The notes under the pieces: model-generated
Told to the model about the DNA's origin: nothing
Database searches by the model: none
Seen by the model: only the letters and a program-made list of their open reading frames with translations
Translations under genes and position numbers: made by a program
Shown: positions 19,401-57,564 of the stretch, piece by piece
Position numbering within the stretch: position 1 is the first letter of the stretch
Layout of the letters: each line of letters starts with the position of its first letter
DNA from: Promethearchaeota archaeon
Lineage (GTDB): Archaea; Asgardarchaeota; Lokiarchaeia; Sigyniarchaeales; SOKP01
Assembly (NCBI GenBank): GCA_019058245.1
Contig: JAHPZJ010000017.1
Location: 11,134-75,133, forward strand
DNA length: 64,000 nt
Direction of reading: 5' to 3'

Positions 19401-19417
19401 AGGAGGAATGACATAGT

Positions 19418-21253: not shown

Positions 21254-21346
21254 TTTAATCTTTTTTAAACCATAATAAAATATTTAATTTTAAGAAAAAA
21301 ATTATAGAAAATAACTGAAAAAAAACAGAATTAGAGGTTATATATA

Positions 21347-30652: not shown

Positions 30653-33600
30653 ATGGGGGATATGAATATTAAATTAAATAAATCTATTGAAAAATTTAAA
30701 TATATTACAGAAAAATCATTAATGGGTATTACAATCCTACAAGATGGTGAGTTAAAATATTTTAATGAGAAATTTATTGAAATTTGTGGTTATTCGGCAG
30801 AGGAAATAAAAAGTTGGGCACCAAATGGATTTTCAAAATTTATTTATATTGAAGATCGGGATTTTGTAATGGAACAAGCAAGTAAAAAGCAAGCAGGATA
30901 TCCCGACGTTGTCAATCAATATAAATTCAGAATAAGACGGAAAGATGGGAAAATAAGATGGGTTGAAATTTTCTCAAAAACTATAAACTATGAAGGACAT
31001 CCAGCGGATTTAGTAACAATCAATGACATTACCGATAAAATCAATGCAGAAAAAGAATTAATAGAATCAGACGAAAAATATCGAAATATTCTTGAAAATA
31101 TGATGGAAGGATACTTTGAAACTGATCTTTCTGGAAAATTACTTTATGCTAATGCTGAGTTTTGCAAAATTTCAGGATTTTCAAGGGAAGAAATGATAGG
31201 AAAGGATACTCGATTAATTTATGATAAAGAGTCAAGAAAAATTTTATCTGATCTATTCAACGAGGTTTATAACACAGGAATTCCTCGTCCACCATCAGGA
31301 CTCGTTAAAGTAAGGACAATTAAGAAGAAACTTATTTATTTTGAAGGAAGTTTGGATTTATTATATGACTCTGAAGGAAATAAGGTGGGGTTTTATGGTT
31401 TTGTTCGTGATATAACACAAAGGAAAATTGCTGAACAAAAATTAAAAGAATCTGAAGAAAAATTTAGATATATTGCAGATCATTCCTTATTGGGGATAAC
31501 TATACTACAAGATGGTGTACTTAAATATTTTAATAAAAAAGTTGCTGAAACTTATGGAGTGTCAGAAGAAGAAATGAAAAATTGGAGTCCAGGACAATCA
31601 TTGAAACTTATCCATCCTGATGATCTTGAGTTTGTAAAGAGACAAGGATTGAAAATGCAAAGTGGTGAATCCAATGATGTATTTAACTATAAATATAGAA
31701 TAGTAAAGAAAGATGGAAAAATTGAATGGCGTGAAGTTTTCTCAAAATCAATAATTTATGAAGGTCGCCCAGCAGGTTTTGGAATTCATATTGATATTAC
31801 AGAAAAAATCGAAGCTGAGCGTAAATTAAAAGAATCAGAAGAAAAATTTAGAAATATCACAGAACAATCGTTAGTAGGAATATCTATTATACAAGATGGG
31901 AGATATAAATATTTTAATAAAAGATTTTGTGAGATGAGTGGATATTCACCAGAAGAGATTAATAGTTGGGTTTCTAATGAATTTGCAAAAGTTGTCCATC
32001 CTGATGATCGAGATTTTGTAATGGAACAAGCCTTTAAAAAACAAGTTGGTGATTCTGACGTTGTCAATCAATACTCATACCGTATAATAAGAAAAGATGG
32101 GGAGATCAGATGGTTCGAAATTCTCTCGAAAACTATAAATTATGAAGGACATCCGGCGGATTTAGCAATGATTATTGACATTACCGATAAAATAAAAGCT
32201 GAAAGGCAGTTAAGAGATTCAGAAGATAAATTTTCTAAAGCATTCAATTCTAATGTTTTATCTATGAGCATATCATCTTTTGAAGATGGTAAATTCATTG
32301 AAGTAAATGATGCTTTTTTAAATTATGTAGGTCATTCTAGGGAAGAAGTTATTGGTAAAACGACTGATGAGTTAGGTTTATGGGTTAGTGAAAAAGTTCG
32401 GAAAAGATTTATAAGACTTATCGATAAACATGGAAGTCTATTTAATATAGAAACCAAAGATATACCAAGAACAGGAGAAACTAAATATGGTTTAGTCTCT
32501 TATATTAAAATCATGCTTAATGAGAAGCCTTTTCTTCTTAGTATTCTAAATAACATAACTCCCCGGAAATTAGCTGAGCAGCAATTAAAAGAATCAGAAG
32601 AAAAATTTAGATATATCGCAGATCATTCCTTATTGGGGATAACTATACTACAAGATGGTGTATTTAAATATTTTAATAAAAAAGTTGCTGAAACTTTTGG
32701 AGGATCAGAAGAAGAGATTGAAAATTGGGGTCCGGGAGAATCAATAAAATTCATACATCCTGATGATCGTGACCTTGTAATAAGACAAGCACTTAAAGTA
32801 CAACGTGGTGAATTTGATGATGCAGTTAACTATAAATATAGAATAGTAAAAAAAGATGGAAAAATTGGATGGCGTGAAACTTTCTCGAAATCAATAATTT
32901 ATGAAGGTCGCCCAGCGGGTTTTGGAATTCACATTGATATTACAGAAAAGATCGAAGCGGAGCGGAAATTAAAAGAATCAAGGGAAAAATATCTTCGAGC
33001 ATATAATCAAGCAGAATTTTATAAAGATCTCTTTATCCATGATATAAATAATACTCTTCAGAGTCTTTATTCTTCTACCCAATTAATCGATATAGACTTA
33101 GAAGAAGATAGAAAAAATAATAATATTAATGAACTTATAGATATTATGTATAGACAGATTAATAGAGGGATAAATTTAATTTCTAATGTTCGTAAATTAT
33201 CTCAATTGGAAAATCATGAGATATCTCTCAAGGAAATCGATTTTTTTGATGTTTTAAAGCAATCCATAGAATTTTTAAAGAATACATTCCAAGATAGGAA
33301 CATTCAAATTAAATATGATATTTCTTGTGAGAATGTTCCAATCATTGGTAATGAACTACTTCAAGATGTGTTCGAGAATATTCTGATTAACTCAGTTAGA
33401 CATAACAATAATGATTGTGTAGAAATAGTAATTAAAACCTCACACGTAAAACAGGATGATAAATCTTATTGTAAACTAGAAATTATTGACAATGGCATTG
33501 GGATCGAGGATGAACGTAAGAAAAATGTGTTAAATCGGGCAGATCCTGATGCCAAAACTACATATGGAATGGGATTGGGCTTATCATTAGTCAAAAAAAT

Positions 33601-33703
33601 TATTGATAGTTATGGGGGAAAAATCTGGATTGAAGATAAAGTTGAAGGTGAGTATTCTAAGGGAACTAAAGTTATTTTATTAATACAAAAAGGTGGTTCT
33701 TGA
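30653..33703 (+). CDS. Cytoplasmic sensor histidine kinase with 6 PAS domains
   Basis: Six PAS/PAC units joined by KLKESEEKF linkers; H-box HDINNTLQ; N-box ENILINS; DNGIGI; GMGLGLSLV. Confidence 0.93.
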   Translation: MGDMNIKLNKSIEKFKYITEKSLMGITILQDGELKYFNEKFIEICGYSAEEIKSWAPNGFSKFIYIEDRDFVMEQASKKQAGYPDVVNQYKFRIRRKDGKIRWVEIFSKTINYEGHPADLVTINDITDKINAEKELIESDEKYRNILENMMEGYFETDLSGKLLYANAEFCKISGFSREEMIGKDTRLIYDKESRKILSDLFNEVYNTGIPRPPSGLVKVRTIKKKLIYFEGSLDLLYDSEGNKVGFYGFVRDITQRKIAEQKLKESEEKFRYIADHSLLGITILQDGVLKYFNKKVAETYGVSEEEMKNWSPGQSLKLIHPDDLEFVKRQGLKMQSGESNDVFNYKYRIVKKDGKIEWREVFSKSIIYEGRPAGFGIHIDITEKIEAERKLKESEEKFRNITEQSLVGISIIQDGRYKYFNKRFCEMSGYSPEEINSWVSNEFAKVVHPDDRDFVMEQAFKKQVGDSDVVNQYSYRIIRKDGEIRWFEILSKTINYEGHPADLAMIIDITDKIKAERQLRDSEDKFSKAFNSNVLSMSISSFEDGKFIEVNDAFLNYVGHSREEVIGKTTDELGLWVSEKVRKRFIRLIDKHGSLFNIETKDIPRTGETKYGLVSYIKIMLNEKPFLLSILNNITPRKLAEQQLKESEEKFRYIADHSLLGITILQDGVFKYFNKKVAETFGGSEEEIENWGPGESIKFIHPDDRDLVIRQALKVQRGEFDDAVNYKYRIVKKDGKIGWRETFSKSIIYEGRPAGFGIHIDITEKIEAERKLKESREKYLRAYNQAEFYKDLFIHDINNTLQSLYSSTQLIDIDLEEDRKNNNINELIDIMYRQINRGINLISNVRKLSQLENHEISLKEIDFFDVLKQSIEFLKNTFQDRNIQIKYDISCENVPIIGNELLQDVFENILINSVRHNNNDCVEIVIKTSHVKQDDKSYCKLEIIDNGIGIEDERKKNVLNRADPDAKTTYGMGLGLSLVKKIIDSYGGKIWIEDKVEGEYSKGTKVILLIQKGGS

Positions 33704-34495: not shown

Positions 34496-36778
34496 ATGAT
34501 AAATGAAATAAATGATGATTTAAATAAATTACTTGAAATACTTAAGATTATTACTGAACAGTCTCTCGTTGGGATAATAATAATACAGGATGGTAAATTA
34601 ATATATTTTAATAAGAGAGTATCTGAAACTTCTGGGTATTCAATAGAAGAGATTAAAGGTTGGAATCCTAATGATTTTCTTAAGGTTATCCATCCTGAAG
34701 ATCGGGAATCCGTCGCGGAACAAGCACGCAAAAGACAGTTAGCTGATCCAGAGGTTATCGATAAGAATAAATTTAGAATAATAAGGAAGAACGGGGAAAT
34801 TGCATGGATTAGAGTTTCTACGAAAAGAATAAATTATGAAGGTCGCACTGCAAATTTAGTAATGATTAATGATATAACTGATAAAATCAAATCTGAACAG
34901 AAATTAAAAGGATCAGAGGAAAAATTTAGAAATATCGCAGATCACTCTTTAGTGGCTATAAGTGTTCTACAAGATGGAGTATATAAATATTTTAATGACA
35001 AATTAGTTGAAATTAACGGATATTCTGCAGAGGAAATCAGAAATTGGGCTCCTAATGAATTTGCAAAAATAATCCATCCTGAAGATCGAGAATTTGTCAT
35101 GGAACAAGCACGTAAAAAGCAAACAGGTGATTCAGATGTTATCAATCAGTATCAATTTAGGATAAAAAGGAAAGATGGAGAGATTAGATGGATTGAAATT
35201 TTCTCAAAAACGATAAACTATGAAGGTCAGCCTGCAGATTTAATTATGACTAATGATATTACCGATAAAAAAAAGATTGAACAAAAATTGAAAGAATCAG
35301 AAGAAAAATTTAGAAATATCGCAGAACAATCTTTAATGGGGATATCTGTCACACAAGATGGTGTATTTAAATATTTTAATGATAGAGTTATTGAGAGCCT
35401 TGGATATTCAGTAGAAGAGATTGAAAGTTGGGGTCCTAATGAATTTGCAAAATTTATCTATCCTGAAGATCGAGAATTTGTCATGGAACAAGCACAGAAA
35501 AAACAAGCTGGAGATCCAGATGTTGTAAATCAATATCAATATAGAATAATAACGAAAGATGGAGTAATTAAATGGCTAGAAATATTTGCTAAAACAATAA
35601 ATTATGACGGTCATACTGCAGATTTAGCAATGACAGTTGATATTACCGATAAGATCGAAGCGGAACAGAAGCTAAAAGAATCTGAAGAAAAATTTTCTAA
35701 AGCGTTCAATTCTAATGCTTTAGCAATGTCTATAAGCACCATGGACGAAGGTATAATAATTGAAGTAAACGATGCCTTTCTAAAGCTTTTTGGGTTTTCT
35801 AGGAAAGAAATTACTGGTAAAACAGCTTCAGAAGCTAGATTAAAGGGTAGGGAGGAACGGAAAGAAATGTTAAGAACTATTGAAGAACAAGGAAGTATAA
35901 TTAATCATGAAACCGACTATAAAACTAAATCTGGGGAAGTTAGATACGGTTTATTTTCTTTCGTTAAAATTCTACTTAACGATAAACCCTTTCTTCTGAC
36001 AATTATAAATGATATTACACCATTGAAAATAGCTGAACAGAAATTAAAACAATCAAAGGAAAAATACCTTCGTGCATATAACCAAGTAGAGTTTTATAAA
36101 GACCTCTTTATCCATGATATAACTAATAATCTCCAGAGTCTTTATTCCTCTATCCAATTAATCGATATAAACTTAGATGAAAATTGTAAAAATAATACTA
36201 TTAAAGATTTCATAAATATTATATATAGACAGATAAATAGAGGTACAGAATTAGTTGCTAATGTTCGTAAATTGTCTCAATTGGAAGCGGAAGAAGTTTT
36301 CATTGATGAAATTGATGTTTTTGAGGTTTTAAATCGATCTATAGAATTTTTAAAGAATTTATTTCAAGATAAAAAAATTCAAATTAAATGGGATATATCA
36401 AGTGAAAAAGTCTTAATCCTTGGTAATAATCTACTTCAAGATGTATTCGAGAATATTCTTATCAACTCTGTTAGATATAATAATAATGATATTGCAGAAA
36501 TAATAATAAAAGCTTCACAAGTAGAACAAAATGGTATTTCTTATTGGAAACTTGAATTTATTGACAATGGTATCGGGATTGAGAATGAACGTAAGGAAAG
36601 CGTATTAAGTCGGGCAGATTTAGATTCTAAAACTACTTATGGAATGGGATTAGGGTTATCATTAGTTAAAAAAATCATTGAGAATTATGGAGGAAAAGTC
36701 TGGATTGAAGATAAAGTTGAAGGCGATTATTCTAAGGGAACTAATGTCATTTTATTAATGCAAAAAGGTGATCATTGA
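34496..36778 (+). CDS. Cytoplasmic sensor histidine kinase with 4 PAS domains
   Basis: Four PAS units; HDITNNLQ H-box; HATPase motifs. Confidence 0.93.
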   Translation: MINEINDDLNKLLEILKIITEQSLVGIIIIQDGKLIYFNKRVSETSGYSIEEIKGWNPNDFLKVIHPEDRESVAEQARKRQLADPEVIDKNKFRIIRKNGEIAWIRVSTKRINYEGRTANLVMINDITDKIKSEQKLKGSEEKFRNIADHSLVAISVLQDGVYKYFNDKLVEINGYSAEEIRNWAPNEFAKIIHPEDREFVMEQARKKQTGDSDVINQYQFRIKRKDGEIRWIEIFSKTINYEGQPADLIMTNDITDKKKIEQKLKESEEKFRNIAEQSLMGISVTQDGVFKYFNDRVIESLGYSVEEIESWGPNEFAKFIYPEDREFVMEQAQKKQAGDPDVVNQYQYRIITKDGVIKWLEIFAKTINYDGHTADLAMTVDITDKIEAEQKLKESEEKFSKAFNSNALAMSISTMDEGIIIEVNDAFLKLFGFSRKEITGKTASEARLKGREERKEMLRTIEEQGSIINHETDYKTKSGEVRYGLFSFVKILLNDKPFLLTIINDITPLKIAEQKLKQSKEKYLRAYNQVEFYKDLFIHDITNNLQSLYSSIQLIDINLDENCKNNTIKDFINIIYRQINRGTELVANVRKLSQLEAEEVFIDEIDVFEVLNRSIEFLKNLFQDKKIQIKWDISSEKVLILGNNLLQDVFENILINSVRYNNNDIAEIIIKASQVEQNGISYWKLEFIDNGIGIENERKESVLSRADLDSKTTYGMGLGLSLVKKIIENYGGKVWIEDKVEGDYSKGTNVILLMQKGDH

Positions 36779-37356: not shown

Positions 37357-38703
37357 ATGAACCGAAAGAGAGTTATTATTATAGGTGCTCTTGGTTATGA
37401 CTTTCACCTATTTAATACTGTTTTTAAGGATAACGAAGAATATTTTATTGTAGCATTCACTATTGCGGGAGAACAAAACGTAGGCACCACAGAAGAAACC
37501 GAAAGAAAATTTCCTGCAGAGCTAGCAGGTAGTTTATATCCAAATGGAATTCCAATGGTATCAGAAGATAAATTAGAAGATTTAATAAAGAAGTATCAGG
37601 TTGACGAAGTGGTTTTTGCCTATTCTGATGTATCTCACGAAGAAGTGATGCATAAAGCATCAAGGGCACTTGCTGCTGGTGCAAATTATCGCCTGATTTC
37701 AGGTAGATTTACGCAACTTAAAGCAAATAAACCCGTAGTTGCTATCTGTGCAGTAAGAACTGGATGTGGAAAAAGTCAAGTTTCTCGAGCTACATATAGA
37801 TATTTAAAGAATAAGGGATATAAAGTCGTAGCTATTCGCGAACCAATGCCTTATGGTGATTTAGTCCAACAAAATGTCATGAGATTTGAGAATTATGATG
37901 ATCTAGATAAATATGATTGTACTATTGAAGAACGCGAGGAATATGAACCTTATATTGAGCAAGGTTTAGTTATTTATTCTGGTGTGGATTATGAAAAAAT
38001 CATACGCGAAGCTGAGAAAGAAGCCGATGTAATTATTTTTGATGGTGGAAACAACGAAATTTCATTCTACATCCCTGATCTGCTATTTATAGTAGTAGAT
38101 CCTCTTAGACCAGGACATGAAGTTTTATATCATCCTGGAGAAGTTAATGCTCGATATGCTGATGCGTTTGTAATTAATAAGATGAATAATGCGAAAGCTG
38201 AAGATGTAAAGATTGTAGAAGATAATTTAAAAGCTCTAAATCCAAATGCTACTAAAATTTTTACAAATTCAATTGTAACAGTCGAGAATGATATTGATCT
38301 AAACGGAAAAAAAGTAATTGTCGTTGAGGACGGTCCTACATTGACTCATGGCAATATGTCTATTGGAGCCGGATTTGTAGCAGCAATCAATAATGGAGCA
38401 GAAATAGTCGATCCTAGACCCTATTTAACTGGAGCAATGAAATTAGTTTTCGAAGAATTTCCCCACATAACTCAAATCGTTCCAGCAATGGGCTATAATG
38501 AACAACAGATTAAAGATATGGAAGAAACTTTAAATAATGCTGAAGCTGAAATTGTTATTGATGGTAGTCCAATAAATCTTGAAAAATTAATAAAATGTAA
38601 CAAACCAATTGTACGAGTCAATTACGATATCGAATCAATAAAAAGTCCAACAATAGAGCAAGTACTTGACAAGTTTATTGATAAATGTCTAAAGAATTCT
38701 TAA
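37357..38703 (+). CDS. arcE: Arginine synthetase-like P-loop protein (often annotated as cyclic 2,3-diphosphoglycerate synthase-like GTPase)
   Basis: YPNGIP, FAYSDVSH, AVRTGCGKSQ, PMPYGDL, CTIEEREEYEP, DGGNN, EDGPTLTHG and PAMGY match the Thermococcales ArcE family as I recall it; lies near OTC and carbamate kinase genes. Confidence 0.82.
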   Translation: MNRKRVIIIGALGYDFHLFNTVFKDNEEYFIVAFTIAGEQNVGTTEETERKFPAELAGSLYPNGIPMVSEDKLEDLIKKYQVDEVVFAYSDVSHEEVMHKASRALAAGANYRLISGRFTQLKANKPVVAICAVRTGCGKSQVSRATYRYLKNKGYKVVAIREPMPYGDLVQQNVMRFENYDDLDKYDCTIEEREEYEPYIEQGLVIYSGVDYEKIIREAEKEADVIIFDGGNNEISFYIPDLLFIVVDPLRPGHEVLYHPGEVNARYADAFVINKMNNAKAEDVKIVEDNLKALNPNATKIFTNSIVTVENDIDLNGKKVIVVEDGPTLTHGNMSIGAGFVAAINNGAEIVDPRPYLTGAMKLVFEEFPHITQIVPAMGYNEQQIKDMEETLNNAEAEIVIDGSPINLEKLIKCNKPIVRVNYDIESIKSPTIEQVLDKFIDKCLKNS

Positions 38704-38889: not shown

Positions 38890-40023
38890 ATGGTATATAA
38901 TTTGGATGAATCTATGGAAACATTTAAAATAATTACAGAACAATCCCTCGTTGGAATAATCATAATACAAGATGGTCTATTTAAATATTTTAATGATAGA
39001 CTTACTAAAACTACAGGATATTCAGCAGAAGAGATCAAAAGATGGACTCCTAATGAATTTGCAAAAACAATTTATCCTGAAGATCGGGAATTTATTATGG
39101 AAATGGCACGTAAAAAACAAGCGGGTGATCCAGAGGTTCCCTATCAATATTCATATAGAGCGATAAGAAAGAATGGAGAAGTCTATTGGGTTGAAGTTTT
39201 TTCAAAAACTATAATTTATAAAGGGCGTCCAGCAGATTTTTTAATGGGGTATGAGATTACAGATAAGGTCAAAGCAGACCAAAAGTTAATAGAAACCAAG
39301 GAAAAATATCAAAAAGCATACCATCAAGCAGAATTCTATAAAGATCTATTTATTCATGATATAAACAATACACTTCAGAGTCTTTATTCATCTATCCAAT
39401 TGCTTGAAATAGGTTTAGAGAATATTCAAGAAAATAATGAGATGAAAGAACTCATTAATATTATGGATAGACAGATCAAAAGGGGTGTAAATTTAATCTC
39501 TAATGTTCGTAAACTATCTCAATTGGAAGAACATGAAATTTCTATTAGGGAAATAGATCTCCTTGAATTTTTAAAACGATCTATCGAATTTATAAAGAAT
39601 TCATTTCAAGAGAGGAAAATTCAAATCAAAATTGATGTATTTAATGAGAAGATGTTAGTAAAAGGTAATGAGTTACTTCAAGATGTATTCGAGAATATTC
39701 TTATCAACTCAGTGAGACATAATAATAATGATATTGTAGAAATAATAATAAAAACTTTACAAATAGAACAAGATGATACAACCTACTATAAACTTGAGTT
39801 TATTGACAATGGAATTGGCATTGAGGATCAGCGTAAGGAAAGCGTATTAAGTCGGGCAGATCTCGATTCTAAAACTACTTATGGAATGGGATTAGGGTTA
39901 TCATTAGTTAAAAAAATCATTGAGAATTTTGGAGGAAAAATTTGGATTGAGGATAGAGTTAAAAATGATTACTCTAAGGGAATTAATGTAAATTTATTAC
40001 TGTCAGAGTATGTTTCTTCATAA
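38890..40023 (+). CDS. Sensor histidine kinase with a single PAS domain (third paralog)
   Basis: One PAS unit; HDINNTLQ; HATPase motifs. Confidence 0.92.
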   Translation: MVYNLDESMETFKIITEQSLVGIIIIQDGLFKYFNDRLTKTTGYSAEEIKRWTPNEFAKTIYPEDREFIMEMARKKQAGDPEVPYQYSYRAIRKNGEVYWVEVFSKTIIYKGRPADFLMGYEITDKVKADQKLIETKEKYQKAYHQAEFYKDLFIHDINNTLQSLYSSIQLLEIGLENIQENNEMKELINIMDRQIKRGVNLISNVRKLSQLEEHEISIREIDLLEFLKRSIEFIKNSFQERKIQIKIDVFNEKMLVKGNELLQDVFENILINSVRHNNNDIVEIIIKTLQIEQDDTTYYKLEFIDNGIGIEDQRKESVLSRADLDSKTTYGMGLGLSLVKKIIENFGGKIWIEDRVKNDYSKGINVNLLLSEYVSS

Positions 40024-40838: not shown

Positions 40839-43019
40839 ATGATTCTAGCAGAAAAAAAATATAAAATCCAAGAAATCCAAAGAGGGTATGTAAATCGGAC
40901 TCTATATATCAATCTTAGTAGAAATGAAATTTCTATAAAGCCTGTTTCTGAAGAAATGAAAGATAAATTTATTGGAGGAAAGGGCTTTGATTTATGGCTT
41001 ATGTGGAACTCTCTTCCAAAAGATCAAATTGTAAAATGGGATGATCCTGAGAATGAGATTTGCATATCTTCAGGTCCATTAGGGGGGAGTATTTTTTATC
41101 CAGGTTCTGGAAAGTCAATTGTTACTTCAATATCTCCTCTAACAGGCATTATTATCGATTCTAATGTTGGAGGATACTTCGGACCTTATCTTAAATTTTC
41201 AGGTTTTGACGCATTAGAAATACAAGGAAAAGCGAAAAAAGATGTTGTCATTTATATTGATGGTATTGAGGGAATAATTCAAATTGAAGAAGTTGAAGAT
41301 TCTGAGAATTTATCAGAATTTTCTCATGAACTTACTCAACAATTAACAGAGAAGTATGCTATAGATGATGCGGAAAAAAGACAAATCTCTGTCGTTAGCA
41401 GTGGTCCAGCAGCTAAACATTCAAAGTGGGGGATGTTAAATTTCTCGTGGTATTCAACAATGCGCAAACATGCTTCTGTTAAGCAAGCAGGTAGAGGGGG
41501 AATAGGAACTGTATTTAGAAATAAAACTATAAGAGCATTAGTTTGTCGTTCTCCCAGCGTTTCAATAAGATCAAATAATCCAGCGGATTTAGAAACTGCG
41601 CGAGAACTTGGAAAGATTCATAGTAAAGATATTATGGATGTGGATCCTTTACAGAATGAAATGCGAAGAGTTGGAACGGGTTATTTACCAGATATTATGA
41701 ATGTCGTTGATCTACTTCCAACCGAGAACTTTCGATATGGTTCTCATAAAGAAATTAAAGATAAAAATATATCTTATAGTCGTGAAGAAATGCGAAAGGT
41801 TTATCATGTCAAAGAAGGAACGGATGGATGCTGGATTGGGTGCACTATGAGTTGTTCACATTATACAACGGGTCATAAAGTTTTGACAGGTCCTTTTAAA
41901 GGTCAAGAAGTAATTGTAGATGGTCCAGAATATGAAACTATAGCGGGGTGTGGATCAAATTGGGGAGTATGGGATGTAAAATGGGTTCTTGAAGTTAATT
42001 TTTATTGTGATACCTATGGTTTAGACACCATTTCTGTCGGGACAGGAATTGCTTTTGTTATGGAATGCTATGAGAAAGGTATTCTAAACAAAGAAATCAC
42101 GGGAAACCTTGAACTTAAATTTGGAAATGCTGAAGCTGCTTTAGAGTTAATACATCAGATGGCACGAGGAGATGGTTTTGGTGTAATTGTAGGAAAAGGA
42201 ATTAGGGAAATGAAAAAATTTTTTACCGAAAACTATGGTGGTAATCCTCAGTTTCTTAATGACATAGGGATGGAGCACAAAGGATTAGAATTTTCAGAAT
42301 ATATGACAAAAGAATCACTCGCTCAGCAAGGAGGATATGGATTAGCTCTTAAAGGGCCACAACATGATGAAGCATGGTTAATTTTTGAGGATATGGTAAG
42401 AAATACAATTCCAACTTTTGAAGATAAAGCAAAAGCTTTACGCTGGTTCCCTTATTGGAGGACCTGGTTCTCTTTAAATGGACTTTGTAAGCTCCCTTGG
42501 AACGATGCTATTGGCCCTCAAAATAAAGAACTTCCAATAAAAGATCCTGAAACAGGAGAGCTTCTCCAAGCTCGTGTTCCTTATCATGTTGAATGGTATG
42601 CCAAATATTTTTCAGCAGTTACAGGAAGAATCTCGACTCCAGATGATCTTATCATGATGTCAGAGAGAGTATACAATTTTCAGAGAATTTTTAATATTCG
42701 TTTGGGACAAGGGTTGCGTTCTGGAGACTCTAATTTACCATATAGATCAATGGGACCAGTTACAACCTTAGAATATGAAAGTCGTCAAGAAAGATATGAT
42801 GATCAACTTAAAGAATTAGGATTTGATCTATCAGATAAAAATACAGAAGAAAAAATAATGATTCTTCGAAAACATCGTGTTGAACAATATTCAAGACTTC
42901 AAGATGCCGTTTATAAGGAACGTGGATGGAATTTGAAAGGCTGTCCTACAATAGAAAAAATAAAAGAGTTAGGGATTAATTATGAAGATATTATGTCTAT
43001 AATTAAATTATATCAATAA
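40839..43019 (+). CDS. aor: Aldehyde:ferredoxin oxidoreductase family (W/Mo-bis-pterin)
   Basis: FIGGKG, SPLTG..DSNVGGYFG, GFDALEIQG, AGRGGIG, GCWIGCTMSC, GPEYET, CDTYGLDTIS and LCK motifs. Confidence 0.9.
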   Translation: MILAEKKYKIQEIQRGYVNRTLYINLSRNEISIKPVSEEMKDKFIGGKGFDLWLMWNSLPKDQIVKWDDPENEICISSGPLGGSIFYPGSGKSIVTSISPLTGIIIDSNVGGYFGPYLKFSGFDALEIQGKAKKDVVIYIDGIEGIIQIEEVEDSENLSEFSHELTQQLTEKYAIDDAEKRQISVVSSGPAAKHSKWGMLNFSWYSTMRKHASVKQAGRGGIGTVFRNKTIRALVCRSPSVSIRSNNPADLETARELGKIHSKDIMDVDPLQNEMRRVGTGYLPDIMNVVDLLPTENFRYGSHKEIKDKNISYSREEMRKVYHVKEGTDGCWIGCTMSCSHYTTGHKVLTGPFKGQEVIVDGPEYETIAGCGSNWGVWDVKWVLEVNFYCDTYGLDTISVGTGIAFVMECYEKGILNKEITGNLELKFGNAEAALELIHQMARGDGFGVIVGKGIREMKKFFTENYGGNPQFLNDIGMEHKGLEFSEYMTKESLAQQGGYGLALKGPQHDEAWLIFEDMVRNTIPTFEDKAKALRWFPYWRTWFSLNGLCKLPWNDAIGPQNKELPIKDPETGELLQARVPYHVEWYAKYFSAVTGRISTPDDLIMMSERVYNFQRIFNIRLGQGLRSGDSNLPYRSMGPVTTLEYESRQERYDDQLKELGFDLSDKNTEEKIMILRKHRVEQYSRLQDAVYKERGWNLKGCPTIEKIKELGINYEDIMSIIKLYQ

Positions 43020-43122: not shown

Positions 43123-45207
43123 ATGGACGATATAAAAAAGCATCCTATTTTAGATATACAAAAAAGAAAAAAGATTTCTTTTATTTTTAACGGTGAAAAA
43201 TTAATTGGATTTGAGGGAATGGTTATATCTTCAGCACTTTTTTTAAATAAAATAAAAATTTTTGGTCATCATATTAAAGATAATAGCCCTCAAGGTATAT
43301 TTTGTGCTAATGGGCAATGTGCTCAATGTAATGTAATTGTGAATAGTATTCCTGTAAAAGCATGTATGACTATTCTTAAGGAAGGTATGAGAATAGAAAG
43401 TTGTGATGGATTACCAGAGCTGCCTGCTGAAGATAATGAAGTAAATGTAAGCAATGCTGAAGTTGTTGAAATCGAAGTACTTATAATAGGTGCAGGTCCT
43501 GCAGGATTATCTGCTACAAAGATTTTAGGAGAACATAAGGTTAAAGTGATTTTAGTTGATGATAAGGGTAAACTTGGGGGTAAATTAGTTCTTCAAACAC
43601 ATAAATTCTTTGGTTCTCAGAAAGATGTATATGCTGGAAAACGTGGAATAGATATTGCTAAAATTTTAAGTAATTCTATTGAAGCTAATTCAAATGTTCA
43701 GATTTGGCTAAATAGTGTATGTTTAGCAGTATTTAGTGATGGGTTAGTTGGAATCTTGAAGAATAATAAAGAATATGTCTTAATAAAACCTAAATTTTTG
43801 TTTATTGCTACTGGAGCCAGAGAAAAACAGTTAGTTTTTCCGGGAAATACATTACCAGGAGTATATGGTGCTGGTGCCTTTCAAACTCTAGTTAATCGTG
43901 ATTTAATAAAGGCAGCAGATAAAATTTTCATTATAGGAGGAGGTAATGTAGGCTTAATTGCAGGATATCATGCAATCCAAGCAGGTATAGAAGTGGTTGG
44001 TTTAATTGAAGCTTTACCTCAGTGTACCGGATATAAAGTACATGAAAATAAACTTAGAAGATTAGGTGTTCCAATTTATACTCGTCATGTTATTATTTCA
44101 GCTAATGGTAAAAAAAATGTAGAATCTACAACAATTGCAGAAATTGATGATAATTCTAAAGTAATTTCTGGATCTGAAAAGACATATGCCTGTGATACCA
44201 TTTTAATTGCCGTAGGATTAAATCCAGTCAATGAACTTTATCAAAAAGCAAAAGATTTTGAATTCAAAGTATGGGAAGCTGGAGATGCTCAAGAAATTGC
44301 AGAGGCTTCAGCTGCAATATTTACAGGGAAAATTGAAGCTTTAAAGATACTTAAAGAAATTGGGATTGAATTTTCTGAAAATATCAGCGAATTAGAAGAA
44401 TCCGCTAATTTAATGAAAACTAAACCTCCACAGCCAATAAAAACTGAAATAAAATTTAAAGAAGAGGGCATATATCCTGTTTTTTATTGTAATCAAGAGA
44501 TACCATGTAATCCATGTACTACTGTATGTGAGCATGAACAAATTGAAACTATTGATGATTTGATAACACAATTACCTTATTTTAAGAATGAAAAAGAGTG
44601 TATTGGATGTGGAAAGTGTGTTGCTGTATGTCCAGGATTAGCTGTTGTATTAATAGATTATCGCAAAGATCGAAATAATCTATTAGTTACTTTTCCCTTT
44701 GAATTAACAGAGGATAAATTAGAGAAAGGACAAAAAGTTATTGTTGTTAGTAATGATGAGGAATTAGGTACATTTGAAATTCATAGAGCTCGAATTTTAA
44801 AAGACTATCCTAAAACTCAATTAGTTACCATAAAATTGCCTTCTAAAATTGCAAAACAAGCAGTAGCAATTAAACTATTTCAAACCAAATTCAATGAACC
44901 AATAGATTTATATCAAAAAACCTTAACTGATGATGATACAATAGTATGTAGATGTGAACGTGTGTCAGTAGGAGAAGTTCGAAAATGGATACGTTCAGGA
45001 GTGAAGGATTTCAATGAATTAAAAGCATTGACTAAAGTAGGAATGGGCGCTTGCGGAGGTAAAACTTGTACACCGTTAATTGAAAGAATATTTCGAGAGG
45101 AAGGTATCGCAATTGAAGATATTATACATGGAACAAAACGTCCTCTATTTATTGAAGTTCCGATGGGTATATTCGCTAATGCTAAAAATAAAAATGAGGA
45201 ACTCTAA
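43123..45207 (+). CDS. Proline dehydrogenase/sarcosine oxidase alpha-like fusion: 2Fe-2S + FAD/NAD oxidoreductase + 2[4Fe-4S] ferredoxin + BFD-like domain
   Basis: FCANGQCAQC, GAGPAGL, ATGARE, GGGNVG, CNQEIPCNPCTTVC, CIGCGKCVAVCP and CRCE...GACGGKTC. Confidence 0.85.
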   Translation: MDDIKKHPILDIQKRKKISFIFNGEKLIGFEGMVISSALFLNKIKIFGHHIKDNSPQGIFCANGQCAQCNVIVNSIPVKACMTILKEGMRIESCDGLPELPAEDNEVNVSNAEVVEIEVLIIGAGPAGLSATKILGEHKVKVILVDDKGKLGGKLVLQTHKFFGSQKDVYAGKRGIDIAKILSNSIEANSNVQIWLNSVCLAVFSDGLVGILKNNKEYVLIKPKFLFIATGAREKQLVFPGNTLPGVYGAGAFQTLVNRDLIKAADKIFIIGGGNVGLIAGYHAIQAGIEVVGLIEALPQCTGYKVHENKLRRLGVPIYTRHVIISANGKKNVESTTIAEIDDNSKVISGSEKTYACDTILIAVGLNPVNELYQKAKDFEFKVWEAGDAQEIAEASAAIFTGKIEALKILKEIGIEFSENISELEESANLMKTKPPQPIKTEIKFKEEGIYPVFYCNQEIPCNPCTTVCEHEQIETIDDLITQLPYFKNEKECIGCGKCVAVCPGLAVVLIDYRKDRNNLLVTFPFELTEDKLEKGQKVIVVSNDEELGTFEIHRARILKDYPKTQLVTIKLPSKIAKQAVAIKLFQTKFNEPIDLYQKTLTDDDTIVCRCERVSVGEVRKWIRSGVKDFNELKALTKVGMGACGGKTCTPLIERIFREEGIAIEDIIHGTKRPLFIEVPMGIFANAKNKNEEL

Positions 45208-46374
45208 ATGGTTGAATATGATGTGATCATTATAGGTGCGGGTAGTGTTGGTGTTCCTACGGCTTTAGCTACTGCAAATGATGGATTAAAAACACTCGTA
45301 ATTGATTCACTGCCCTCAGTAGCACAAGCAGATAATAAACATGCTATTGGGGGAATTAGAGCTACTCACTCTCATAAAGGAAAAATATGGTTATGTCAAA
45401 GATCAATTGAAATTTTCTCTTCTTGGGAAGAACGATATGGAGATGATATTTGGTGGACTCAGGGAGGTTATACATTTTTAGCATTTACAAAAGAACATGA
45501 AAATCAGTTAAAGGAAACTGTAAAACTTCAAAAAAGTTATGGATTAAATATTAATTATGTTAATGCAAATAAAATTAAGAATTTAATACCAGGTATCAAT
45601 GATGATAATCTATTAGGGGGAACACATAGCCCTGAAGATGGTAATGCTTCCCCTCTATTATCATTACATGCATTTTTTCGAAGATCAAAAAATTTAGGAG
45701 CAAAATATCAATTCAAAGAAAAAGTTACAGATATATTAACTAAAAATAATAGAGTAATTGGGATCAAAACTACAAGAAGCCAATATAAAACACAATCAAT
45801 TATTAATGCCGCAGGCGCTCATGCTAAAGAAATTGGAAATATGATTGGCATAGATACTCCAATAGAACCAGAATCACATGAAGCAGGAATAACAGAACCA
45901 GTAAAAAAATTCTTTACTCCAATGGTAGTGGATATTAGTGTTTGTTATGATCCCAAATTTGGAAACTCGAGGAATTATTATTTCTATCAAAATAAAGAGG
46001 GTAAAATACTTTTTTGTATAACTCCCGATCCAAATATTATAGGAATGGATCGTAATGAAACTAGCTCTTTTCTACCTCAGATCTCCAAGAGAATGATCCA
46101 ACTTATTCCACGATTAAGGAACATAAAAGTAAGACGAACATGGCGAGGATTATATCCAATGACACCTGATGGGAATCCAATCATAGGAAAAGTAGATGAG
46201 ATGAAAGGATATTTTAATGCTATTGGAATGTGTGGTCAAGGATTTATGCTAGGACCTGGATTAGGAGAACTTCTCAGTCGTATTTTAACAGATAAAGAAA
46301 CTTCGAGAGATAAAGAGATCTTAGAAACTCTCTGTCATAATCGTGATTTTAGTATAGAAGAAGAATTAAAATAA
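45208..46374 (+). CDS. FAD-dependent amine oxidoreductase (proline dehydrogenase/sarcosine oxidase beta-like, DAO family)
   Basis: IIIGAGSVG, INAAGAHA, WRGLYPMTPDGNPIIG and GMCGQGFMLGP; ATG directly after the upstream stop. Confidence 0.85.
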   Translation: MVEYDVIIIGAGSVGVPTALATANDGLKTLVIDSLPSVAQADNKHAIGGIRATHSHKGKIWLCQRSIEIFSSWEERYGDDIWWTQGGYTFLAFTKEHENQLKETVKLQKSYGLNINYVNANKIKNLIPGINDDNLLGGTHSPEDGNASPLLSLHAFFRRSKNLGAKYQFKEKVTDILTKNNRVIGIKTTRSQYKTQSIINAAGAHAKEIGNMIGIDTPIEPESHEAGITEPVKKFFTPMVVDISVCYDPKFGNSRNYYFYQNKEGKILFCITPDPNIIGMDRNETSSFLPQISKRMIQLIPRLRNIKVRRTWRGLYPMTPDGNPIIGKVDEMKGYFNAIGMCGQGFMLGPGLGELLSRILTDKETSRDKEILETLCHNRDFSIEEELK

Positions 46375-46461: not shown

Positions 46462-47394
46462 ATGCTTCGACATTTATTAAAAGTCTCTGATTTTTCAAAG
46501 AATGAGTGCGAGAAGGTTATTAATAAAGCAATAGAGCTTAAGAAAAATCCTAAGAAATTTAATTCAATTTTAGAAGGTGAAACACTTTTGATGTTTTTTG
46601 AAAAACCCTCTTTAAGAACACGAATTTCATTTGAAACAGGAATGCAACAATTAGGAGGGCATGCAATTTTTTATTCGATTAAAGACTCTCCTTTAGGTAA
46701 AAAAGAAAACCTTTCAGATACTGCTAAGGTTGCTTCTAGATTTGTAAATATTATTGCTGCTCGGGTTTTTAAACGACAAGATATTAGGGATCTTGCTAAA
46801 TATGCAGAAGTTCCTGTGATAAATATGTTGGATGATTTTGCACACCCATGTCAGATTTTAGGAGATTTTCAGACTATTAAAGAGAAAAAAAACAGTTTAA
46901 CTACCATGAAACTATCATATTTTGGTGATGCTCATAATAATGTTACTTATGATTTAATGCGAATTTGTGCAATGTTTGGATGGAGAATGGATGTTGCATG
47001 CCCTGATGTTCCAGAATATTCACCTGAACAAATAGTTTTAGATGAGGTTTCTGATTTATCCAAAGAAACTGGTGCAGAAGTACAAGTTATTCATAATGCC
47101 ACAAATGCAGCTCAAGATTCTAGTGTAATATATACTGATAGTTGGATGAGCTATGGGATACCTCAAGAGCAGGAAGAAGAACGGAAAAAGGCTTTTATGC
47201 CTTTTCAAGTTACCCCTTCAATTATGAAAGTTGCAAAACCAGATGTGGTCTTTATGAATTGTTTGCCAGCAATGAGAGGATATGAACAAACAGCTGATGT
47301 AATTGATGGTCCTCAATCAATTGTTTTTGATCAAGCAGAAAATAGATTGCATATTCAAAAAGCAATTATGTTGTTTTTAAGAGAAAAATTTTAA
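46462..47394 (+). CDS. arcB: Ornithine carbamoyltransferase
   Basis: FEKPSLRT, HPCQ, YTDSWMSYG, CLPA and FDQAENR motifs. Confidence 0.92.
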   Translation: MLRHLLKVSDFSKNECEKVINKAIELKKNPKKFNSILEGETLLMFFEKPSLRTRISFETGMQQLGGHAIFYSIKDSPLGKKENLSDTAKVASRFVNIIAARVFKRQDIRDLAKYAEVPVINMLDDFAHPCQILGDFQTIKEKKNSLTTMKLSYFGDAHNNVTYDLMRICAMFGWRMDVACPDVPEYSPEQIVLDEVSDLSKETGAEVQVIHNATNAAQDSSVIYTDSWMSYGIPQEQEEERKKAFMPFQVTPSIMKVAKPDVVFMNCLPAMRGYEQTADVIDGPQSIVFDQAENRLHIQKAIMLFLREKF

Positions 47395-47458: not shown

Positions 47459-48370
47459 TTGAAAACATTAATCGTAGCACTTGGAGGGAATGCCTTAATA
47501 AAATTTGGAGAAGAAGGTACCACAGAAGAACAATTTCGGAATTTAAGAGTTCCAATTAGTCAAATTGCGAAACTCGCAAGAGACTATAACATTATTATTA
47601 CACATGGTAATGGCCCACAAGTAGGAAATCTCTTATTACAGCAGGAAGCAACAGCATTCATCTCAAAAAGTCCTTTACAAATATTAGTAGCAGAAACTCA
47701 AGGTCAAATTGGATTTATGATTGAAAGTACTTTAGATGAAGAGCTTATGAAAATTGGGTTGGATCAAGAAAAACTCTTCCTTACTGTTTTAACTTATGTA
47801 GAAGTTGATCCTGAGGATCCTGCTTTTAAAAACCCTACAAAACCCGTTGGACCTGCTTATCCTGTACGTACAAAATTAGGTCAAATCAAAACAGCTAAGG
47901 GGTGGCGACGTGTAGTTCCTTCTCCTGAACCGATAAAAATTTACCAATGGCGTGAAATTAAAAAACTTATGGAGCTTGGAAGTTGGATCGTAATTGCCTG
48001 TGGAGGAGGAGGTATTCCTGTCATAAAAGAAGGGAATAATTTATATGGAGTCGAAGCTGTTATTGATAAGGATCTTGCTAGTGCAAAATTAGGAGAACAA
48101 ATTAAAGCAGATATTTTATTAATCGCAACTGATGTTGAGAAGGTTGCTTTAAATTATGGAAAATATAATGAAAAATTATTAGAAAAACTTTCTGTGTCAG
48201 AAGCAGAAGAATATCTTAAAGAAGGTCAATTTCCTGCAGGAAGTATGGGTCCAAAAGTAAAAGCAATAATTAATTTCTTAAAGTCTGGAGGAAAACAAGC
48301 AATGATCACATCTATTGATAAAATAAAACAAGCTCTCAATCTTAAAGCAGGAACTCACTTTTTTTATTAA
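47459..48370 (+). CDS. arcC: Carbamate kinase
   Basis: ALGGNAL, THGNGPQVG, PTKPVG, RRVVPSP, GGGGIPV, AVIDKD and GSMGPK. Confidence 0.93.
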   Translation: MKTLIVALGGNALIKFGEEGTTEEQFRNLRVPISQIAKLARDYNIIITHGNGPQVGNLLLQQEATAFISKSPLQILVAETQGQIGFMIESTLDEELMKIGLDQEKLFLTVLTYVEVDPEDPAFKNPTKPVGPAYPVRTKLGQIKTAKGWRRVVPSPEPIKIYQWREIKKLMELGSWIVIACGGGGIPVIKEGNNLYGVEAVIDKDLASAKLGEQIKADILLIATDVEKVALNYGKYNEKLLEKLSVSEAEEYLKEGQFPAGSMGPKVKAIINFLKSGGKQAMITSIDKIKQALNLKAGTHFFY

Positions 48371-48423: not shown

Positions 48424-49695
48424 TTAAGAAATAAGTACTTTTTCAATAATTTCAAGAGCTAAATCAATTTCATTTTTTGTAATGACTAAAGGTGGAGCTA
48501 ATCTAATAATTGTTGAATGTGTATCTTTTGCTAAGATACCATTATCCTTTAATTGTTCGACAATTTGTCTAGCATCTTCTTCAAATTCAATTGCGATTAG
48601 TAATCCTTTTCCTCTAATTTCTTTAATAGGTATTTTAGTTCTTTTCTGAGAAATTTCATTTAATCTCTTTAAAAAGTAATCCCCCATCTCTTTAGCCCGT
48701 TCGGCAAGATTGTCCCGTAAATGAATATCTATAGATTTCATCCCAATTGCAGAAGCTAAAGGGTTTCCACCAAATGTGCTTCCATGAGTCCCTGGAGTTA
48801 TTACTTCTGGACCAATAATTTCTTTGGTACTTACACATGCAGATATTGGATAAACTCCACCACCAAGAGCTTTACCTAATAAGATCATATCTGGTTTCAC
48901 ATCCTCATGTTCACAAGCAAAAAATTTACCAGTTCGACAAAAACCAGTTTGAACTTCATCAGAAATTAACACTATATTATATTTTGTACAGATTTCTCTT
49001 ACTTTTTTTAAATATCCTTTGGGAGGAATCTTTACACCCGCTTCTCCTTGAATAGGTTCTACTAAGAAAGCAGCCACTTTTTCAGGACCAATTTCTAAGA
49101 TTGCCTTTTCCAATTCCTTCGCATCTCCATACGGAATAATATTAAATCCTGGGGTAAAGGGACCAAAGTATCCGTAATACCTTACTGCTGAAATGTCAGA
49201 ACTAAAACCCACAATAGTAACTGTTCTTCCATGAAAATTGTTTCTGCACACGATTATTCTTGCTTCATCTTTGGGGATTTTTTTTTTAATATAACCCCAA
49301 GCTCTTACTACTTTTATAGCAGTCGAAACAGCTTCTGTTCCTGTACTCATTGGAAGAGACATTATTCCACTATTATTTGGGTCATAAATGTGTGGTCCAA
49401 CAACATCTGCCAACATTTTAAGAAACGGTCCCATCATTGTGTTATGAAATGCCCGAGAAGTGAGAGTAACAATATCGGCTTGTTCTTTTAATGTCGCGAC
49501 AATTTCAGGATGACAATGACCCAAATTTTGACTTGAGTAGGCAGATAAACAATCTAAATATTTTTTACCTTCCGGATCATAAACCCAAACTCCTTCAGCC
49601 CGCGAAATTACTACTGGAATTGGATGATAATTATGTGCACCATATTCCAAATCCATTTTAATATAATCTTTTGAACTTGGCATTAAATATCCCAT
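48424..49695 (-). CDS. rocD: Ornithine--oxo-acid aminotransferase (class III PLP enzyme)
   Basis: YGAHNYHPIPVV, LSAYS, LTSRAFH, FHGRT, EPIQGEAG, DEVQTG, GKALGGG and HGSTFGGNPL. Confidence 0.9.
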   Translation of the reverse strand: MGYLMPSSKDYIKMDLEYGAHNYHPIPVVISRAEGVWVYDPEGKKYLDCLSAYSSQNLGHCHPEIVATLKEQADIVTLTSRAFHNTMMGPFLKMLADVVGPHIYDPNNSGIMSLPMSTGTEAVSTAIKVVRAWGYIKKKIPKDEARIIVCRNNFHGRTVTIVGFSSDISAVRYYGYFGPFTPGFNIIPYGDAKELEKAILEIGPEKVAAFLVEPIQGEAGVKIPPKGYLKKVREICTKYNIVLISDEVQTGFCRTGKFFACEHEDVKPDMILLGKALGGGVYPISACVSTKEIIGPEVITPGTHGSTFGGNPLASAIGMKSIDIHLRDNLAERAKEMGDYFLKRLNEISQKRTKIPIKEIRGKGLLIAIEFEEDARQIVEQLKDNGILAKDTHSTIIRLAPPLVITKNEIDLALEIIEKVLIS

Positions 49696-49890: not shown

Positions 49891-50193
49891 TTATTCTTGC
49901 ACTTGAATAATTTCTGTTGATTCTTTTTCTTCCCTAAGATCTAATAGTTTTAATATTTCAACACCAAAAATGTTTGATAAGATTTTATTCATCTCAGATC
50001 CTCCCATATAACCCTGACATCCTAAATGAAGTTTATGAAAATGTCCTCCTAATTTAGTCTCAACCTCTTTTATGAAATTAATAACTTTTTCTTCTAAAGA
50101 TTGGGATGGCGTATCATTTAATAAAAATACTACTTTAAATTCTCCATTTGTAAAGAGCCCTCCCGATAAATATCCATCTCTAAATTTAATCGA
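49891..50193 (-). pseudogene. Start-less open frame (~100 codons) encoding a longin-like C-terminal fragment, in the -1 frame relative to the RelA/SpoT-like ORF
   Basis: Translates to IKFRDGYLSGGLFTNGEFKVVFLLNDTPSQSLEEKVINFIKEVETKLGG...QVQE*; no N-terminal ATG/GTG/TTG. Confidence 0.55.
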
Positions 50194-50630
50194 TTATAAA
50201 GTTTCAAATCTGGATCAAGTTGAATAATATATGTTTGATAATGCTCTGGATATTGATTTTCTATGATTTTTTTAAAAGCATCACCAGTACTACTAATACC
50301 AATTAGAAAAATATCTTTTATAGCTTGAATGACAGTATTCATCTCATTAACATTTGGTAAAATTATTCGAACTCCACATAAATCATTTATCTCCGCAATA
50401 GGATCTGTATATTTTACATCAGGACTAAATAATTTATTGGCAAAACTTGAAATTGTCTTTACCCTGTTTTGAATAATATGTTCTGAAGAACACCCTTGTA
50501 CTATGTTTTCAAGAATAGTATCTATAATCTTAGAGTACTCTTCATAGAGAGGGCGTAGTTCTTTATATCTGTTAATTTGTTCTTCATAAAACTTACGTTG
50601 TTCTATTTCCATAGTTACTTTTTCCCTCAA
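50130..50630 (-). CDS. RelA/SpoT-like nucleotidyltransferase domain, apparently truncated
   Basis: RVKTISSFANK and INDLCGVRII present; the downstream EIQxRT motif is absent. Confidence 0.65.
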   Translation of the reverse strand: MREKVTMEIEQRKFYEEQINRYKELRPLYEEYSKIIDTILENIVQGCSSEHIIQNRVKTISSFANKLFSPDVKYTDPIAEINDLCGVRIILPNVNEMNTVIQAIKDIFLIGISSTGDAFKKIIENQYPEHYQTYIIQLDPDLKLYNRLNLEMDIYREGSLQMENLK

Positions 50631-56847: not shown

Positions 56848-57564
56848 ATGTCCGATAATAATAAAAGAGAAGTTAACAGAATTAAAGAACTTGAAAGTAT
56901 TAATTTATCAAGAGAAGAAATTAGAGATTTTGTTATTGAAACCAAGAAAGAAGTAGAAAAGGATAATGATTTATTAGCAAAACAACTAAATGATGAACTT
57001 AAGAAAAGAGGGATCAGATCAATAGATATTGTTGGCGCCATTGGAGCAGGGAAAACAGCACTTCTAGAAAAAATCGCTGAAAGATTATCAAAAAAGTATA
57101 GAATCTTAGTAATTTGTGGAGATATCACAACTAGAGTAGACGCTGATAGAATTGAGAAACATGATGTTAAAACAATTCAAATTAATACTGGAAGGGAATG
57201 TGCATTAAATGCATATCATATTTATCAAGTTTTAAAGAATCAAGATTTAGACAACTATGATCTAATTTTTATAGAAAATGTTGGAAATCTAATTTGTCCA
57301 TCTGATTTCAAATTAGGTACAGATATGAGAATGACAGTAGTTTCGATTACTGAGGGAGAATGGGTTGTTGAAAAACATCCAATGCTCTTTAAGATGTCTG
57401 ATGTCGCTGTTATTAATAAAATCGATCTTTTAGAGAGATTAGGAACTAATATTGACAAAATGGAAAATGATGCTAAGAATTTCAACCCACATATAAAAGT
57501 AATAAAAACAAGTGCTAAAACTAATGAAAATGTTGATTTACTAATTAAAACTCTTGAATTATAA
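56848..57564 (+). CDS. hypB: Hydrogenase nickel incorporation GTPase HypB
   Basis: GAIGAGKT, INTGREC, IENVGNLICP, EG...KHP, NKID and SAKT. Confidence 0.88.
   Translation: MSDNNKREVNRIKELESINLSREEIRDFVIETKKEVEKDNDLLAKQLNDELKKRGIRSIDIVGAIGAGKTALLEKIAERLSKKYRILVICGDITTRVDADRIEKHDVKTIQINTGRECALNAYHIYQVLKNQDLDNYDLIFIENVGNLICPSDFKLGTDMRMTVVSITEGEWVVEKHPMLFKMSDVAVINKIDLLERLGTNIDKMENDAKNFNPHIKVIKTSAKTNENVDLLIKTLEL

Follow-up and report, generated by a model that had tools for sequence, protein, structure and literature searches.

Which aldehyde is handled by a long enzyme of the AOR/WOR family whose gene heads a run of amino acid genes in a Lokiarchaeial genome? The window, i.e. the whole stretch of 64,000 nucleotides that was analysed, belongs to a Promethearchaeota assembly of 3.09 Mb (29% GC, 76% complete). 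The layout described in the initial annotation, in which the AOR gene is followed by co-oriented genes for a proline dehydrogenase (PDH)-like enzyme, an ornithine carbamoyltransferase (OTC) and a carbamate kinase, with the run convergent on an ornithine aminotransferase (OAT) gene, agrees with the coordinates and the profile scores (Table 1). Glutamate-5-semialdehyde (GSA) had been put forward as the substrate, a candidate assignment that is well supported by comparative genomics, namely gene linkage, co-occurrence and the lack of RocA.

Table 1. Position and characteristics of the AOR/WOR gene and of other genes in the window.
Feature	Position	Strand	Characteristics
Glutamate dehydrogenase-like (1658-2908), aconitase, fumarase, succinyl-CoA-ligase-like pair, isocitrate/isopropylmalate dehydrogenase-like	1658-2908, 10401-12326, 16244-17623, 18099-22543		18-39 kb upstream of AOR
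Three paralogous multi-PAS histidine kinases	30653-33703, 34496-36778, 38890-40023		near-identical repeats; ORFs of ~124 aa after two
ArcE-like (arginine synthetase-like) P-loop protein	37357..38703	+	2.1 kb upstream of AOR
Long AOR/WOR-family large subunit	40839..43019	+	726 aa, ATG start; AFOR_N + AFOR_C (Pfam)
Fused PDH-like alpha subunit	43123..45207	+	694 aa; Fer2_4 + Pyr_redox_2 + Fer4 + Fer2_BFD
PDH-like catalytic beta subunit, DAO family	45208..46374	+	388 aa; best PDB match 1y56_B, E 3.3e-54
OTC	46462..47394	+	TIGR00658 360 bits (cut-off 281); sole OTC in assembly
Carbamate kinase	47459..48370	+	TIGR00746 367 (cut-off 358)
OAT, RocD type	48424..49695	-	TIGR01885 523 bits (cut-off 378); convergent on run
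Short RelA/SpoT-domain ORF	50130-50630	-	166 aa; adjoins OAT; possibly truncated
hypB	56848-57564		TIGR00073 238 bits; ~14 kb from AOR, outside cluster

The reading frame of the AOR is intact (profile search, AFOR_N E 1e-46 and AFOR_C E 2e-95), and its best homologues in similarity searches are Promethearchaeota (Lokiarchaeia) proteins. Residues T280, E364, Y488 and H509, which align with the second-shell residues Thr243, Glu313, Tyr427 and His448 (PfAOR numbering) named for aldehyde-oxidising WORs (PMC13328260), are conserved across 54/54 members of its group, with T280 once replaced by Ser, and the [4Fe-4S] cysteines C331, C335, C339 and C550 are equally invariant (54/54), the first spacing being 3 and not 2. 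Private to the group and invariant are the motifs QHDEAW, KE491-492, R541 and WND554-556 (CKLPWND), located close to the catalytic His and to the last of the cysteines. No variation is seen among the 54 aligned members at R541 and K551, which, by motif reading, presumably correspond to Arg481 and Arg492 of FOR, a pair which we take to hold the distal carboxylate of glutarate.

An AF2 model derived from a deep alignment (pLDDT 96.4), which replaced a discarded model from a shallow alignment (pLDDT 50), fits FOR, AOR and the remaining solved WORs to much the same degree (Z 43-44, rmsd ~2 Å, 26-31% identity), with FOR tying as the top structural match (Z 43.4-43.6 to FOR and AOR), so that the protein is orthologous to none of them. 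Pyrococcus furiosus FOR (PDB 1B25/1B4N) has the same fold (Z 43.6, rmsd 2.1 Å, 595 residues) and the motifs H-x-E-A-W and C-[RK]-L-P-W in common with the 726-aa AOR, but is ~100 residues shorter and spaces its Fe-S cysteines as CxxCxxxC instead of CxxxCxxxC; orthology with FOR was rejected, as the identity of ~31% makes it no closer than AOR, while members of the own group reach 52-88%. Likewise, P. furiosus AOR (1AOR, clade 87), 9MQX, 9G7J, 8C0Z, WOR5 and BamB share the AFOR domains, the catalytic Thr/Glu/Tyr/His and the Fe-S cysteines, but have a structural identity of 22-29% and belong to other clades with broad aldehyde, sulfonate or benzoyl-CoA chemistry, and the NCBIfam equivalog cut-offs for YdhV (clade 41; 100 vs 868 bits) and GAPOR (51 vs 1300 bits) are not reached. 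No gene for the small Fe-S subunit WorS adjoins the AOR gene, which corresponds to a class I layout, in which the large subunit stands alone and ferredoxin would be the acceptor. The 726-aa protein is predicted to be a pyranopterin and [4Fe-4S] oxidoreductase, most likely with tungsten as the metal; the TupA/TupB-like transporter of the source genome scores under the curated cut-offs. On another stretch of this genome (C15:63800-68000), the TupA/TupB-like ABC transporter is followed by genes resembling molybdopterin-synthesis genes.

The genes of the run are spaced by 103, 0, 87 and 64 nt between AOR, alpha, beta, OTC and carbamate kinase and by 53 nt to OAT; promoter-like sites do not exceed the number expected by chance (37 vs 36.6), and a terminator scan gave a result at or near chance. 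The alpha subunit, with 1y56_A (PH1363) as top PDB match, consists of 2Fe-2S, FAD/NAD, 4Fe-4S dicluster and BFD modules and equals four separate Firmicute genes, as the Thermotalea Fer2, Pyr_redox, Fer4 and BFD genes align in order with its residues 4-93, 118-414, 448-585 and 603-686. For the beta subunit, 1y56_B, which we take to belong to the P. horikoshii L-proline dehydrogenase PDH1, far outscores sarcosine and dimethylglycine oxidases. With 1y56 alpha/beta as the closest solved relative, the pair is a putative heteromeric L-proline dehydrogenase, in a family that also includes D-proline and hydroxyproline dehydrogenases. The ArcE-like protein has no match in Pfam, NCBIfam or PDB; its gene is kept beside AOR in Lokiarchaeia, in relatives usually directly upstream, and context together with the report of ArcE in Lokiarchaeota near arcB/arcC (PMC11032458) suggests a TK2200-type ArcE. 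Whereas relatives have the ArcE-like gene and AOR side by side, one of the multi-PAS histidine kinase genes separates the two here.

The arrangement of the AOR gene and the run is not due to chance, as related Lokiarchaeia have it too and bacteria contain the AOR-PDH pair in other orders. Among 80 GTDB loci of the AOR group, from which sister groups at 34-41% identity were excluded, PDH alpha/beta (27), proC (24), cyclodeaminase-family (9), ArcE-like (9), OTC (9) and OAT (6) genes lie within 10 kb, whereby the proC of Desulfobacterales belongs to a conserved housekeeping block. The linkage of the clade to arginine and proline genes is thus clear; it extends over archaea, Desulfobacterota and Firmicutes, with PDH, proC, proBA, ornithine-cyclodeaminase-family or OAT genes beside the AOR, and over several separate branches with varying gene orders. 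At a Bathyarchaeon locus proB-proA is situated directly upstream of AOR, two Bathyarchaea have proC adjacent, and in Anaerosolibacter proA-proB-proC immediately follows the AOR operon, while on two other Firmicute contigs a 2-oxoacid:ferredoxin oxidoreductase occupies the position after the operon. Five Firmicute contigs, four of them from named species, combine split PDH, WorS, AOR and ThiS. Conversely, the AOR of the group is present at around 40 of the 80 PDH-alpha loci from metagenomes despite many short contigs, and none of the 80 carries an aldehyde dehydrogenase; elsewhere, proline racemase-family, MttB-family and Pro_dh genes neighbour PDH. Proline neighbours are absent at many Bathyarchaeia, Thor and Hod AOR loci and at three spirochaete-type loci with WorS. 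In two relatives (L001:12284-13555 and L130), a ThiC/BzaB-like gene is found between AOR and PDH alpha.

The WORs are divided into 92 clades, a scheme attributed to Schut 2021 and Putumbaka 2026. With 57% full-length identity, the 726-aa AOR is related to Thermotalea metallivorans A0A140KZK7 (LOEE01000079), which the accessible part of the supplement to the current classification (Putumbaka 2026, PMC13328260) lists under clade 7. In a tree without clades 5 and 6, which are also 723-730 aa long, the phylogenetic placement proposed at the outset led to one 40-row group (99% SH-aLRT) that unites the AOR with two verified clade-7 proteins, albeit in sister subgroups; the sequence affinities thus argue for a member of a long WOR group that is clade 7 or its immediate sister. 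Clade 7 proteins resemble the AOR in length (712-726 aa) and types of neighbours, which in the accessible part of that supplement include PDH-type, cyclodeaminase, aminotransferase and proC genes; however, Firmicute clade members come with WorS and a split PDH, whereas the Asgard locus lacks WorS and has a fused PDH alpha. WorS also accompanies the Firmicute and spirochaete relatives of the 726-aa AOR. Clade 7 is without any characterised member and accounts for 19.2% of tungstate-transporter-normalised (Tup-normalised) gut WORs, and the words proline, glutamate and semialdehyde occur nowhere in the text of the classification (PMC13328260). Sister long AORs of Desulfobacterota (loci L131-L144) have almost no proline-related neighbours.

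At the level of whole genomes, the core group of the AOR is present in 36 of 111 Desulfobacterales and the fused PDH in 26, all within the 36, while none of the 75 AOR-negative genomes has a fused PDH. Among 121 Asgard genomes, 49 encode the AOR, 25 a full-length PDH and 23 both; in one Asgard family, nine out of nine AOR genomes possess PDH with the two genes unlinked, 1.1 Mb apart. One of the two Asgard genomes with PDH but without AOR, from a bin with 9% contamination, encodes a canonical monofunctional Pro_dh 3 kb from the fused PDH (L245:3835-4761). The co-occurrence with PDH expected from the initial annotation consequently holds for Desulfobacterales (26/26) and Asgard archaea (23/25), but not for Thorarchaeota, with AOR in 19/22 and fused PDH in 0/22 genomes, nor for the spirochaetes without a proline link. 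As two Thorarchaeota genomes of 97-98% completeness lack proC and an OAT-like gene, no semialdehyde source was found there. An anti-correlation with rocA and putA had also been predicted. RocA-type P5C dehydrogenase (TIGR01237) is over the cut-off in none of the 121 Asgard genomes, which is uninformative since it is equally absent in AOR-negative ones, and the source genome, at 76% completeness, yields no P5C dehydrogenase, its sole ALDH scoring 281 against a cut-off of 660. PutA-sized matches do not show the predicted anti-correlation: among Desulfobacterales, 4/36 genomes with AOR and 4/75 without it have one (p 0.43), whereby p-values of such co-occurrence tests overstate the significance as related genomes are not independent.

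PDH, OAT, ProA and ProC all meet at GSA/P5C, which is likely the metabolite common to the neighbours of the AOR group. Since the AOR gene is associated with proline and ornithine genes in many unrelated anaerobes, the enzyme probably interconverts glutamate semialdehyde and glutamate, and we infer that its probable substrate pair consists of L-glutamate-5-semialdehyde (P5C in its open form) and L-glutamate. In the proposed route, arginine would be converted to ornithine by ArcE, OTC and carbamate kinase with formation of ATP, OAT would produce the semialdehyde from ornithine, and proline would be oxidised to P5C by the alpha/beta flavoenzyme. The metal centre of the WOR would then oxidise the semialdehyde to glutamate, with the electrons passing via [4Fe-4S] to a ferredoxin-type carrier, and glutamate might be processed to 2-oxoglutarate by the glutamate dehydrogenase-like enzyme of the window. 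The aconitase, fumarase and associated genes upstream could process the glutamate as well. Thermococcus kodakarensis (ArcE TK2200, OTC, carbamate kinase and ornithine omega-aminotransferase) takes the same route to GSA, but there the semialdehyde leads to proline, and the accessible sections of the report do not describe an AOR step to glutamate (PMC11032458).

In this scheme the WOR would take the place of the NAD-dependent P5C dehydrogenase (RocA/PruA or the C-terminal domain of PutA), for which the same step from semialdehyde to glutamate is established with an unrelated fold, NAD as acceptor and essential irreversibility, whereas the WOR reaction is probably reversible. With NAD as acceptor, the oxidation of proline is an uphill reaction, for which the FAD/Fe-S alpha subunit might re-use the low-potential electrons of the WOR; these would then not be exported to a hydrogenase, and the net yield of reduced ferredoxin might be small. 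The suggestion that reduced ferredoxin serves H2 production or syntrophy finds nothing specific in its favour: hypB is a real gene, but was rejected as a sign of H2 coupling because it is unlinked, and the two NiFe large-subunit-like ORFs of the source genome lie on another contig. The loci of Thorarchaeota, spirochaetes and histidine-linked Firmicutes indicate that the function may vary or reverse across the group. In the literature searched, a search that some older key papers fell outside, no paper was found that joins AOR/WOR to P5C/GSA oxidation.

Another C4-C5 semialdehyde as substrate, either 2-oxoglutarate semialdehyde from hydroxyproline or, as for FOR, glutarate or succinate semialdehyde, is unlikely, and would turn the neighbouring flavoenzyme into a D-proline or hydroxyproline dehydrogenase. 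FOR has reportedly been suggested in older work to oxidise semialdehydes from Arg, Lys or Pro. The more recent proposal for FOR, which binds glutarate (PMC12096430), also concerns a C5 semialdehyde, but glutaric semialdehyde is devoid of the amino group. Some PDH loci have genes of the proline racemase/hydroxyproline epimerase family and a second DAO gene at their flanks, and the beta subunit falls below all curated NCBIfam cut-offs, but this also applies to the D-proline dehydrogenase model with just 29 bits; a DHDPS-like deaminase was not recognised among the recurrent neighbour clusters, and the recurring OAT, proC, proBA and ArcE/OTC neighbours, all meeting at GSA/P5C, would be left unexplained. 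At three loci (L256:5340-6770, L257:6404-7867 and L258), an MttB-family methyltransferase gene lies next to the PDH pair, and two of the three loci also contain a proline racemase-family gene, which suggests the use of proline-betaine or N-methylproline in sulfate reducers.

The same substrate pair could also be used mainly in the reductive direction, from glutamate to the semialdehyde with reduced ferredoxin and without ATP, which would replace ProBA, feed ornithine and arginine synthesis via OAT, OTC and ArcE or act as an electron sink; we give this a small chance only. Loss of proA is indeed commoner in AOR-positive genomes, with 9/36 versus 3/75 in Desulfobacterales and 11/14 versus 2/9 in one Firmicute class, and the genomes without proA mostly retain hisD and proC, while proB is missing in 5/5 tested. 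These genomes, however, have other sources of proline, encoding the cyclodeaminase family in 10/10 and OAT over the cut-off in 4/5 cases; as ornithine could supply proline, proA loss is explained equally well, which weakens the complementarity as proof of a reductive role and leaves it as a hint of reversibility. While proC directly adjoins AOR in many loci and AOR follows histidine-to-glutamate genes at several loci of a Firmicute class, proA is kept in 27/36 AOR-positive Desulfobacterales, no proC was found in the source genome and three others of the genus, and the run that AOR heads, with PDH in it, looks catabolic. In the Koleobacter-containing Firmicute class (L232-L244), WorS-AOR is often located downstream of formiminotransferase, cyclodeaminase and FTHFS genes of histidine utilisation and often upstream of an FeFe-hydrogenase-like gene.

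A broad-range AOR that detoxifies aldehydes in peptide fermenters and is merely located in amino acid gene islands is similarly improbable. In its favour, most characterised WORs oxidise aldehydes broadly (PMC13328260), proline neighbours are missing around many members of the group, and Thorarchaeota carry AOR without PDH. Against it, the genome encodes seven further AOR paralogues, PDH is almost never found without specifically this AOR group, a comparable link is not seen in the sister groups at 34-41% identity (proC in range at 1/14 loci), and the invariant private motifs lie beside catalytic residues.

With the oxidation of GSA to glutamate as the preferred reading, it is tentatively conceivable that the group represents a reversible, ATP- and NAD-independent glutamate/GSA oxidoreductase that closes the anaerobic catabolism of arginine and proline in Asgard archaea, sulfate reducers and Firmicutes and allows some anaerobes to dispense with ProBA. 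While the AOR/WOR family with its chemistry and the C5 semialdehyde proposal for FOR (PMC12096430) were already known, the genome-level occurrence of PDH within AOR-positive genomes, the missing putA anti-correlation, the qualified proA signal and the verified tie to clade 7 with its cultured hosts are added here. Of the 92 WOR clades, very few have a known role, and, if true, this would be the first function for a clade that makes up 19% of the Tup-normalised gut WORs. A defined amino acid substrate would extend tungsten enzymes beyond aldehyde detoxification and glycolysis into core amino acid catabolism, and an ATP-free route to proline may be revealed. As cultured Firmicutes carry the same operon, the proposal is directly testable. 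For Lokiarchaeia, models for the host in eukaryogenesis, the enzyme would fill a missing step in the fermentation of arginine and proline.
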